Source: Escherichia coli (GTDB lineage Bacteria; Pseudomonadota; Gammaproteobacteria; Enterobacterales; Enterobacteriaceae). From it: 597 nucleotides of DNA. Both the position numbers and the translations under genes were made by a program. The DNA lies in the NCBI RefSeq assembly GCF_003334255.1, contig NZ_QOWU01000216.1; one strand, written 5' to 3'. The notes beneath the pieces were generated by a model. The model was not told the origin of the DNA. It was given only the letters and a program-made list of their open reading frames with translations, and made no database searches. Below, one piece after another: positions 1 to 476 of this stretch (positions are counted from its first letter, which is position 1; each line of letters begins with the position of its first letter).

Positions 1-21
1 AATTGTAAACCAGAATGCCAG

Positions 22-48
22 GAAAAAACAAAACCCGCCGAAGCGGGT
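22..48 (-). terminator. Rho-independent terminator of the hok mRNA
   Basis: Minus-strand reading is ACCCGC-TTCG-GCGGGT followed directly by TTTTGTTTTTT: a 6-bp GC-rich stem (33-38 pairing 43-48), a UUCG tetraloop and a U-tract. It sits 69 nt downstream of the hok stop. There is no T-run on the plus-strand side, so it looks unidirectional. Confidence 0.85.
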
Positions 49-49
49 T

Positions 50-68
50 AAGTGCGGGTGCGTTGAGG
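50..68 (-). promoter_or_regulatory. 3' fold-back (fbi-like) element of the hok mRNA, complementary to the 5' leader element at 431-448
   Basis: Plus-strand 50-68 AAGTGCGGGTGCGTTGAGG versus the reverse complement of 431-448, GACTGCGGGTGCTTGAGG: an 8-nt plus 6-nt perfect match separated by one extra G, with one further mismatch at the edge. In the mRNA this lets the extreme 5' end pair with the region just upstream of the terminator, as the tac/fbi interaction does in R1 hok mRNA (established knowledge; the assignment here is inference). Confidence 0.5.
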
Positions 69-117
69 ATGCCTGACACATCAGAGGTGGCGAGGGATTT
101 CTCCCCCGCCAGGTCTC

Positions 118-273
118 TTACTCCTCAGGTTCGTAAGCTGTGAAGACAGCGACCTCCGTCTGGCCGGTTCGGATTCGTACCTCGCAGAGGTCTTTCCTCG
201 TTACCAGTGCCGTCACTATGACGGTTAAACAGATGACGATCAGGGCGATTAACATCGCCTTTTGCTGCTTCAT
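118..273 (-). CDS. hokD: Hok/Gef family type I toxin (small membrane-depolarising peptide), HokD/RelF-like, 51 aa
   Basis: Minus-strand ORF from ATG (complement of 271-273) to TAA (complement of 118-120), 156 nt. Translation: MKQQKAMLIALIVICLTVIVTALVTRKDLCEVRIRTGQTEVAVFTAYEPEE. It has a single hydrophobic transmembrane segment and a conserved Cys-containing TRKDLCEV core, as in Hok/Gef proteins. It matches my memory of E. coli HokD (RelF) and is close to, but distinct from, HokC (Gef). Paralogue naming is from recollection and the context differs from K-12 hokD. An AGGAG Shine-Dalgarno lies 9 nt upstream. Confidence 0.93.
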   Translation of the reverse strand: MKQQKAMLIALIVICLTVIVTALVTRKDLCEVRIRTGQTEVAVFTAYEPEE

Positions 274-329
274 AGCCTGCTTCTCCTTGACCTTTCGGTC
301 CGTAAGAGGCTAATCTCTATGTGTCGCAT
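270..329 (-). CDS. mok-like leader ORF (19 codons), translationally coupled to hok through an ATGA start/stop overlap
   Basis: Minus-strand ATG (complement of 327-329) is preceded by GAGG with an 8-nt spacer. Translation: MRHIEISLLRTERSRRSRL, ending in a TGA (complement of 270-272) that overlaps the hok ATG. It starts 56 nt upstream of hok, at the position where mok starts in hok/sok loci, but in the +1 frame. The frame in phase with hok is closed by a TAG 13 codons upstream of the hok ATG. Whether the peptide is made is untested. Confidence 0.45.
   Translation of the reverse strand: MRHIEISLLRTERSRRSRL
283..287 (-). promoter_or_regulatory. Shine-Dalgarno sequence of hok (AGGAG)
   Basis: Minus-strand AAGGAGAAGCAGGCT-ATG; AGGAG with a 9-nt spacer to the hok ATG. 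Confidence 0.7.
287..316 (+). promoter_or_regulatory. Candidate sigma70 promoter for the Sok-like antisense RNA
   Basis: Plus-strand TTGACC (287-292), 18-bp spacer, TAATCT (311-316); predicted start near 322-324. The -35 overlaps the hok Shine-Dalgarno on the opposite strand. The -10 matches consensus only at T1, A2 and T6, so this rests largely on position. Confidence 0.45.
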
Positions 330-380
330 AGATATGGCCTCAGATTAATGTTAAGCGTCTTGCAGGACGCGTAATGTTAA
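322..380 (+). ncRNA. sok: Sok-like antisense RNA antitoxin (type I), boundaries approximate
   Basis: A plus-strand transcript from about 322 would be exactly antisense to the Shine-Dalgarno and AUG of the mok-like ORF (complement of 327-341). It ends in a stem-loop, GCGTC-TTGCAG-GACGC (355-370), extendable to an imperfect stem over 345-380. Size (about 55-65 nt) and position relative to the mok start fit known Sok RNAs. The 3' end is uncertain (378 to about 392) because no clean U-tract follows the stem. Confidence 0.5.
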
Positions 381-393
381 CTGGGGCTTTTCT

Positions 394-430
394 CTATCTG
401 CCTTTTGGTGTTCATGCCTGAGACAGATAG
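394..430 (-). repeat. Inverted repeat (hairpin) in the hok mRNA 5' leader
   Basis: Plus-strand CTATCTG (394-400) and CAGATAG (424-430) are perfect reverse complements, extendable to about 10 bp with one G-U pair, with a 17-nt loop. It lies immediately 3' of the leader element at 431-448 in the mRNA and may belong to the leader's regulatory fold. Confidence 0.4.
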
Positions 431-448
431 CCTCAAGCACCCGCAGTC
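431..448 (-). promoter_or_regulatory. 5' leader (tac-like) element of the hok mRNA, complementary to the 3' element at 50-68
   Basis: See the feature at 50-68. It sits directly downstream of the predicted -10, that is, at the extreme 5' end of the predicted transcript. Confidence 0.5.
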
Positions 449-476
449 ATTCTACTTAACTAAGATTTCCCCGCAA
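449..476 (-). promoter_or_regulatory. Candidate sigma70 promoter of the hok mRNA
   Basis: Minus-strand TTGCGG (complement of 471-476), 16-bp spacer, TAGAAT (complement of 449-454), with an A-rich stretch upstream. The predicted start near 441-443 gives a leader of about 113 nt to the mok-like AUG and about 169 nt to the hok AUG, similar to R1 hok mRNA. The complementary 5' element begins right at the predicted start. Confidence 0.4.

Follow-up and report, generated by a model that had tools for sequence, protein, structure and literature searches.

A tac/fbi-type end-pairing helix in the predicted mRNA of a prophage-encoded hokD locus of Escherichia coli

The minus strand of the 597-nt stretch of Escherichia coli DNA analysed here (the window) carries a complete hok/sok-type type I toxin-antitoxin locus, and two boxes positioned close to the predicted termini of its hok mRNA are complementary to each other. 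With a probability that we put at about 0.9, these boxes are the tac and fbi elements of a hok-family mRNA that follows the full lock-and-processing model, in which the paired ends hold the transcript closed until its 3′-terminus is removed. The names stand for translational activator (tac, at the 5′-end) and fold-back inhibition (fbi, in the 3′-UTR), and hok mRNA control by tac/fbi fold-back is textbook knowledge. Its mechanism, the nomenclature of the elements and covariation-based evidence have all been published, with fbi located in the model just before the terminator (PMC9841398). The feature is already known and its recognition here is correct but ordinary; its value is one of annotation. 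The window holds an intact, fully equipped prophage version of hokD, a gene that is decapitated in E. coli K-12, and coordinates are provided for all of the regulatory RNA elements together with a predicted transcription start at G442 (Table 1).

A complete hok/sok-type locus in a lambdoid prophage

The 597 bases are 100% identical to part of the chromosome of E. coli strain 4/0, in which the toxin ORF is annotated as HokD and the neighbouring genes (dicB, ydfC, RusA, an antiterminator, a holin and a lysozyme) are those of a lambdoid prophage. Pfam PF01848 is carried by all close protein relatives of the 51-aa ORF, which also matches the NCBIfam Hok subfamily with an E-value of 5.7e-13, passing the curated cut-off, and positions 442-271 of the minus strand match the full Rfam model RF01794 (sok/hok-leader) at 106.7 bits, against a gathering threshold of 59 (E 2.9e-25). 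RF01794 is named 'sok antitoxin'. At every locus matched, the match is to the hok-sense strand, beginning at the 5′-end of the mRNA and reaching as far as the hok AUG; what the family models in practice is the leader of hok and not antisense Sok RNA. Toxins of the same type are encoded by the hokW/mokW/sokW systems of Stx phages and further lambdoid phages; annotation of hokW/sokW loci in prophages is of long standing.

Table 1. Features of the hok/sok-type locus, in window coordinates
Feature	Position	Strand	Remarks
hok promoter -10 box, TAGAAT	449..454	-	aligned to the conserved TAnnAT box of 30 hok loci
tac element, hok mRNA 5′-end	431..442	-	GGGUGCUUGAGG; predicted +1 = G442; complementarity to fbi can reach 445
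Metastable 5′-hairpin of the nascent transcript (predicted)	414..440	-	tac 440-430 with 424-414
ucb / anti-SD box, AAAGCCCC	383..390	-	partner of the mok SD in the full-length fold, of tac in the truncated fold
Sok-like antisense RNA (predicted)	323..391	+	located by alignment with the sokW misc_RNA annotated in phage VT2-Sakai
Putative Sok promoter	287..316	+	-35 TTGACC 287-292, -10 TAATCT 311-316, start G323; read from the sequence
mok Shine-Dalgarno (SD) region, CUGAGGCC	336..343	-	GAGG at 341-338
mok-like leader ORF, 19 codons (MRHIEISLLRTERSRRSRL)	270..329	-	read from the sequence
dcb box, GCCUC	306..310	-	partner of the mok SD after truncation
hok toxin gene	118..273	-	51 aa, MKQQKAMLIALIVICLTVIVTALVTRKDLCEVRIRTGQTEVAVFTAYEPEE; identical to HokD (RelF), RefSeq WP_000813254.1
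G+C-rich 3′-UTR stem-loop (GGCGGGGGAG...CCCUCGCC)	89..110	-	conserved; present in the full-length MFE structure
fbi element	56..68	-	CCUCAA-C-GCACCC, bulged C62; complementarity can reach 53
Intrinsic terminator of the hok mRNA	22..49	-	stem 49-32, then a U-rich tail

The order of the elements is that of hok of plasmid R1 (parB; Thisted 1995 and Franch 1997, as described in PMC9841398), namely a -10 box, tac at +1, the metastable hairpin, ucb, the Sok target and mok SD, mok, hok, a 3′ stem-loop, fbi and the terminator. Both sets of alternative pairings are shared as well: tac/fbi with ucb/SD-mok in the full-length RNA and tac/ucb with SD-mok/dcb in the truncated RNA. The window differs from R1 in its host element, a lambdoid prophage rather than a plasmid, in the sequence of the helix and in mok. 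The window helix, GGGUGCUUGAGG with the fbi sequence listed in Table 1, has 12 pairs and a bulged C, whereas the R1-type helix consists of 7 pairs, with 2-4 further pairs around a G/G mismatch; in an R1-type locus in our alignment, GGCGCUU pairs with AAGCGCC at the equivalent columns. The window mok has 19 codons and ends as AUGA at the hok start, in contrast to the 70-codon out-of-frame overlap of R1.

The hokW/mokW/sokW loci of the Stx phages 933W and VT2-Sakai (Sp5) are much closer, with 390 of 430 aligned bases of the VT2-Sakai locus identical to the window. They too reside in lambdoid prophages, their tac is identical to that of the window, their fbi nearly so (CCUCAACGCACCCGCG), and Sok is annotated at the equivalent place. 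The HokW protein is 92% identical to the window Hok and differs at the C-terminus, and mokW is an in-frame 70-aa extension of Hok, unlike the window mok. At the Sp5 hokW the homology ends right after fbi (…CACCCGC, from ~820 on) and the terminator hairpin of the window is absent, so the hokW mRNA must end differently; another ORF is present in VT2-Sakai within ~100 nt after fbi. In E. coli K-12, hokD (relF) encodes a Hok identical to that of the window (WP_000813254.1) and has a 3′-UTR, including fbi and the terminator, that is ~99% identical. The homology with K-12 (strain C600, 501-765) starts at window position 287, with hokD located 72 nt behind relE, and the K-12 gene is without promoter, tac, ucb, Sok and mok. 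As everything upstream of 287 is missing, the K-12 fbi has no 5′ partner.

These relatives bear on the question of whether the window encodes a working killer. The tac and fbi boxes could be a real pair that is now a relic, in a prophage copy maintained by descent or in a non-toxin role, for example stabilising an RNA that is never translated. Three observations are in keeping with this: the chromosomal hok loci tested earlier, hokA, hokB and hokC, were unable to mediate post-segregational killing (bioRxiv 10.1101/2025.08.07.668861), the K-12 hokD is decapitated directly behind relBE, and the mok frame of the window is unlike the in-frame 70-aa Mok-Hok of close relatives. We nevertheless consider a relic unlikely. 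The -10 box, tac, ucb, the predicted Sok and its putative promoter, the mok SD and AUG, the hok SD, fbi and the terminator are all intact in the window, a short mok ORF with the AUGA stop/start overlap recurs in 11 other homologous loci and so looks like a normal variant rather than a lesion, and the related hokW-sokW is an experimentally functional toxin-antitoxin system of type I, affecting phage release (PMC8621323). Since the chromosomal loci that were tested gave no post-segregational killing, the physiological output of the window copy is uncertain.

Complementary boxes at the two ends of the transcript

Positions 54-68 of the plus strand are GCGGGTGCGTTGAGG; reverse-complementing 431-445 gives TGCGGGTGCTTGAGG. 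A repeat search of the window identified a perfect 9-nt core, 53-61 with 437-445, and a TTGAGG/CCTCAA arm, 63-68 with 431-436. As RNA, these form a helix with one arm of 8 or 9 pairs and one of 6 Watson-Crick pairs, on either side of a single bulged nucleotide (G62 on the plus strand, C62 in the RNA). The secure part of this helix, 442-431 with 68-56, has 12 Watson-Crick pairs in two blocks of six around the bulged C62, and a transcript that starts 2-3 nt further upstream could add 2-3 outer pairs, C443, G444 and U445 with G55, C54 and A53. When helices with one single-base bulge were scored in the window and in 300 dinucleotide-preserving shuffles of it, the best window helix had 15 pairs; 14 pairs were found in one of the 300 shuffles and 15 in none. 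An earlier note, made from the sequence, had described a near-perfect 14-15-nt complement between distant boxes at the predicted 5′-end of the transcript and just upstream of the terminator stem, and had judged such a match unlikely by chance. All of this is borne out, with the arms ~375 nt apart and the fbi arm ending 6 nt before the terminator stem 49-32.

Conservation and covariation of the helix

Homologous loci were collected with a search pattern that avoids tac, fbi and ucb, TAGCCTCT followed after 150-180 nt by GCTTACGAA, applied to one genome per species. Most of the 120 matches were random, in unrelated phyla, and filtering on an ORF with the Hok HMM retained 35 loci from Escherichia, Citrobacter, Enterobacter, Kluyvera, Leclercia, Pantoea, Cedecea, Photorhabdus, Serratia, Phytobacter, Pseudocitrobacter, Atlantibacter and Aeromonas. 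Plasmid hok loci, one from Vibrio, were added to the comparison. For the duplex search we used only the 14 nt that begin at the aligned +1 and the interval 15-125 nt past the hok stop codon; RNAduplex applied to long flanks, or to tac with 6 upstream bases, returned spurious long or G+C-driven duplexes with weak z-scores. All 30 loci with enough flanking sequence have, 42-75 nt beyond the hok stop, a box complementary to these 14 nt; the tac-fbi span is 360-410 nt, and a terminator-like hairpin often comes next. Compensatory changes keep the boxes complementary in 27 distinct hok loci from at least 15 genera.

RNAalifold, given 25 full-length homologues, predicted the end-to-end helix without guidance. 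Column pair 8/458, for example, is U-A in 14 sequences, C-G in 11 and broken in none. For the 12-pair helix named above, 87.8% of the alignment cells are paired, versus 34-52% after a shift of the 3′ partner by 1-3 columns, and there are 21 double-change cells in the true register versus 1-4 in the shifted ones; the observed values were reached by none of 500 shuffles. A single structure line cannot hold the bulged and the unbulged registers together, so the distal half of the helix is undercounted in this cell count, and the pairs were recounted for each sequence. That count gave 9-14 pairs in each of the 27 loci. The mean energy of each 5′ box with its own 3′ partner is -19.95 kcal/mol, versus -16.32 kcal/mol with swapped partners (0 of 10,000 permutations). 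Covariation across these 25-27 loci supports a helix that is formed at the level of RNA.

The wobble pairs separate this explanation from one at the level of DNA, namely that the boxes are terminal inverted repeats or recombination sites bounding a mobile hok/sok cassette and form no RNA helix. The boxes do bracket the whole ~390-bp module, and homology with other E. coli copies tends to stop near the module borders. However, of the 21 non-Watson-Crick pairs counted over the 27 loci, every one is G·U when read on the hok-sense strand and none is A·C, indicative of selection on one RNA strand and not on duplex DNA. Pairing also begins at the predicted +1 in every locus, and the boxes tolerate single-base bulges and vary freely while staying complementary, unlike repeats recognised by proteins. 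Given the strand asymmetry of the wobbles we reject the DNA-level inverted repeat, which we regard as very improbable. A chance match in a G+C-rich 600-bp window is scarcely credible and is likewise rejected, for although the window contains other imperfect inverted repeats of 13-21 nt and one perfect 10-mer, and perfect matches of at least 10 nt occur in ~12% of shuffles, this is refuted by the shuffle counts given above and by complementarity at the same two positions, with compensatory changes, in 30 of 30 homologous loci.

This perfect 10-nt inverted repeat, 407-416 with 562-571 (GGTGTTCATG / CATGAACACC), has one arm in the loop of the tac stem and the other ~110 nt upstream of the hok promoter; given how often perfect repeats of that length arise in the shuffles, it is probably due to chance.

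Several of the collected loci have features of their own. Tandem hok loci, 500-680 bp apart, are present in Photorhabdus akhurstii, P. namnaonensis, Leclercia and Atlantibacter, each copy having matching tac and fbi boxes. The hok loci found on contigs labelled Streptomyces morookaense (4269-4675) and Oscillibacter (a MAG; 4306-4710) encode a Hok identical to the R1/F-plasmid type and most likely result from contamination of these assemblies with enterobacterial plasmid or vector DNA. The Tyr47 codon of hok, UAC followed by G (GCUUACGAA; window 135-132, minus strand), is invariant in all loci, but is part of the search pattern. This UAC-G motif has been reported to be a site of A-to-I editing by TadA that changes Tyr to Cys in hokB, hokC, hokD and hokE (bioRxiv 10.1101/2025.08.07.668861).

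Predicted folding states and the proposed mechanism

For the predicted full-length transcript, 446-26, the MFE is -180.7 kcal/mol (z -8.65). The MFE structure contains the tac/fbi helix, which has a mean pair probability of 0.994 in the partition function for any start from 442 to 446. In the same ensemble the mok SD region, 343-337, is paired with ucb 387-381 (P 0.987). Shortening the RNA from its 3′-end retained the tac/fbi helix down to position 58, and by 62 it was gone (P 0). A comparison of the full-length with the 3′-truncated RNA had been proposed in the earlier note, together with a fit to the known hok mRNA mechanism. The predicted structures agree, with a helix that dominates the full-length ensemble and is lost without the 3′ box, and the fit is upheld by the placement of the boxes where tac and fbi are in the published model, by the RF01794 match and by the covariation.

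The states that precede and follow the closed fold are also recognisable. In the fold predicted for the first 35 nt, tac is sequestered in a hairpin (-16.9 kcal/mol, z -3.98) and, when 68 nt have been made, the nascent RNA is predicted to form the tac/ucb stem. In the MFE structure of the RNA cut at 69, GGG-UGCUU pairs with AAGCCCC (tac/ucb) and GAGGC with GCCUC (SD-mok/dcb), so that the mok SD exchanges its full-length MFE partner, ucb 381-387, for 306-310. The GCCCC of ucb is invariant in the hok-locus alignments, and TAGCCTCT, in the dcb region, is invariant across the hok family and is also part of the search pattern. The nascent, full-length and truncated folds match the states described for R1 hok (PMC9841398). 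In the ensembles, the probability of tac/ucb after truncation is 0.2 with the 3′-end at 69, 0.15 at 85 and 0.78 at 100, and ucb often keeps the mok SD paired, so that the switch is only partial; the truncation series contained no clean thermodynamic switch to tac/ucb. Because of this, we infer the open, active conformation mainly by analogy, and from the MFE structure of one truncation.

In the mechanism that we propose, the R1 hok/sok paradigm is the source for 3′ processing, for the kinetics of refolding, for the effects on translation and for the precise ends of the transcript. The hok mRNA would be transcribed from the minus strand, from ~442 to ~25. In the full-length mRNA, tac would pair with fbi to give a circle-like closed fold, leaving ucb 390-383 free to pair with the mok SD at 341-338. 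With the mok SD masked, neither mok nor the coupled hok would be translated, and the Sok target would be hidden. Slow exonucleolytic trimming from the 3′-end would then remove the terminator and fbi, allowing tac to pair with ucb and so release the mok ribosome-binding site. The refolded mRNA would be both translatable and a target for Sok, encoded on the plus strand at 323-391.

Transcript ends

Across the aligned leaders of 30 hok loci, a TAnnAT box is positioned six bases upstream of the first paired G, which is 442 in the window. The first position of RF01794 aligns to 442, and the first paired 5′ nucleotide is the G aligned with 442 in 27 of 27 homologues. A start at G442 is predicted on this basis, as the six-base -10 spacing, position 1 of the Rfam model and the limit of complementarity across the family all indicate that base. 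In R1, residues of the tac stem are numbered G4/C5/T6 (PMC9841398), which is consistent with an mRNA whose first bases, at the aligned column, are GGCGCT. A consensus sigma-70 scan of the window did not identify a full hok promoter, as the -35 is weak, and the -10 box was identified by alignment alone. The earlier note took the pairing as independent support for the promoter and start, and this stands in part. The comparative start, G442, is inside the 431-448 interval that it gave, but the complementarity overshoots G442 by 2-3 nt and so pairing alone does not fix the start to the nucleotide. The overshoot of 2-3 bases is confined to the hokD/hokW clade, whose sequences are ~90% identical, and therefore has no independent support.

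At the other end of the transcript, hairpins resembling terminators, with U tracts, are found 3′ of fbi in many homologues. The 3′-UTR stem-loop at 89-110 is itself supported by covariation, with alignment columns 383-385 pairing with 395-397 through GC/AU changes, and by analogy with the R1 model it is likely to be a stop for 3′ exonucleolytic trimming. The same region, 109-28 on the minus strand, spanning this stem-loop, fbi and the terminator, has a sub-threshold match to the Rfam family isrK (27.2 bits versus a gathering threshold of 50; E 0.0007). isrK is a prophage-encoded Hfq-binding sRNA of Salmonella. On the opposite strand, RefSeq annotates a 59-aa hypothetical protein, WP_001112736.1, at window 1-76 (6522-6701 in the genome region), antisense to the hok terminator and fbi; this call, made over a structured 3′-UTR, is probably spurious.

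Sok and mok

The predicted Sok-like RNA has a 5′ tail complementary to the mok SD and start codon, then a hairpin and UUUU. The GAGG of the mok SD is 8 nt upstream of the mok AUG, and the mok UGA stop codon (272-270) overlaps the hok AUG (273-271), giving the AUGA arrangement; an in-frame mok-hok reading is closed in the window by a TAG at 312-310. In the family as sampled, mok has three forms. The first, of ~70 codons and out of frame, is of the R1 type, the second is in frame, producing the 69-71-aa Mok-Hok of hokW and hokC-like loci, and the third is a short overlap form of 18-20 codons, found in Photorhabdus, Pantoea, Pseudocitrobacter and Kluyvera.

It is possible, although we hold it to be rather doubtful, that the lock of the prophage hokD/hokW loci is tuned differently from that of the plasmid paradigm, combining a longer end-pairing with termination-reinitiation from the 19-codon mok. 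If so, pairing 2-3 pairs past the family +1 would imply an upstream start or a stronger lock, and the AUGA-overlap mok, as in Photorhabdus, Pantoea and Pseudocitrobacter, would be a third mok architecture beside the out-of-frame and in-frame forms.
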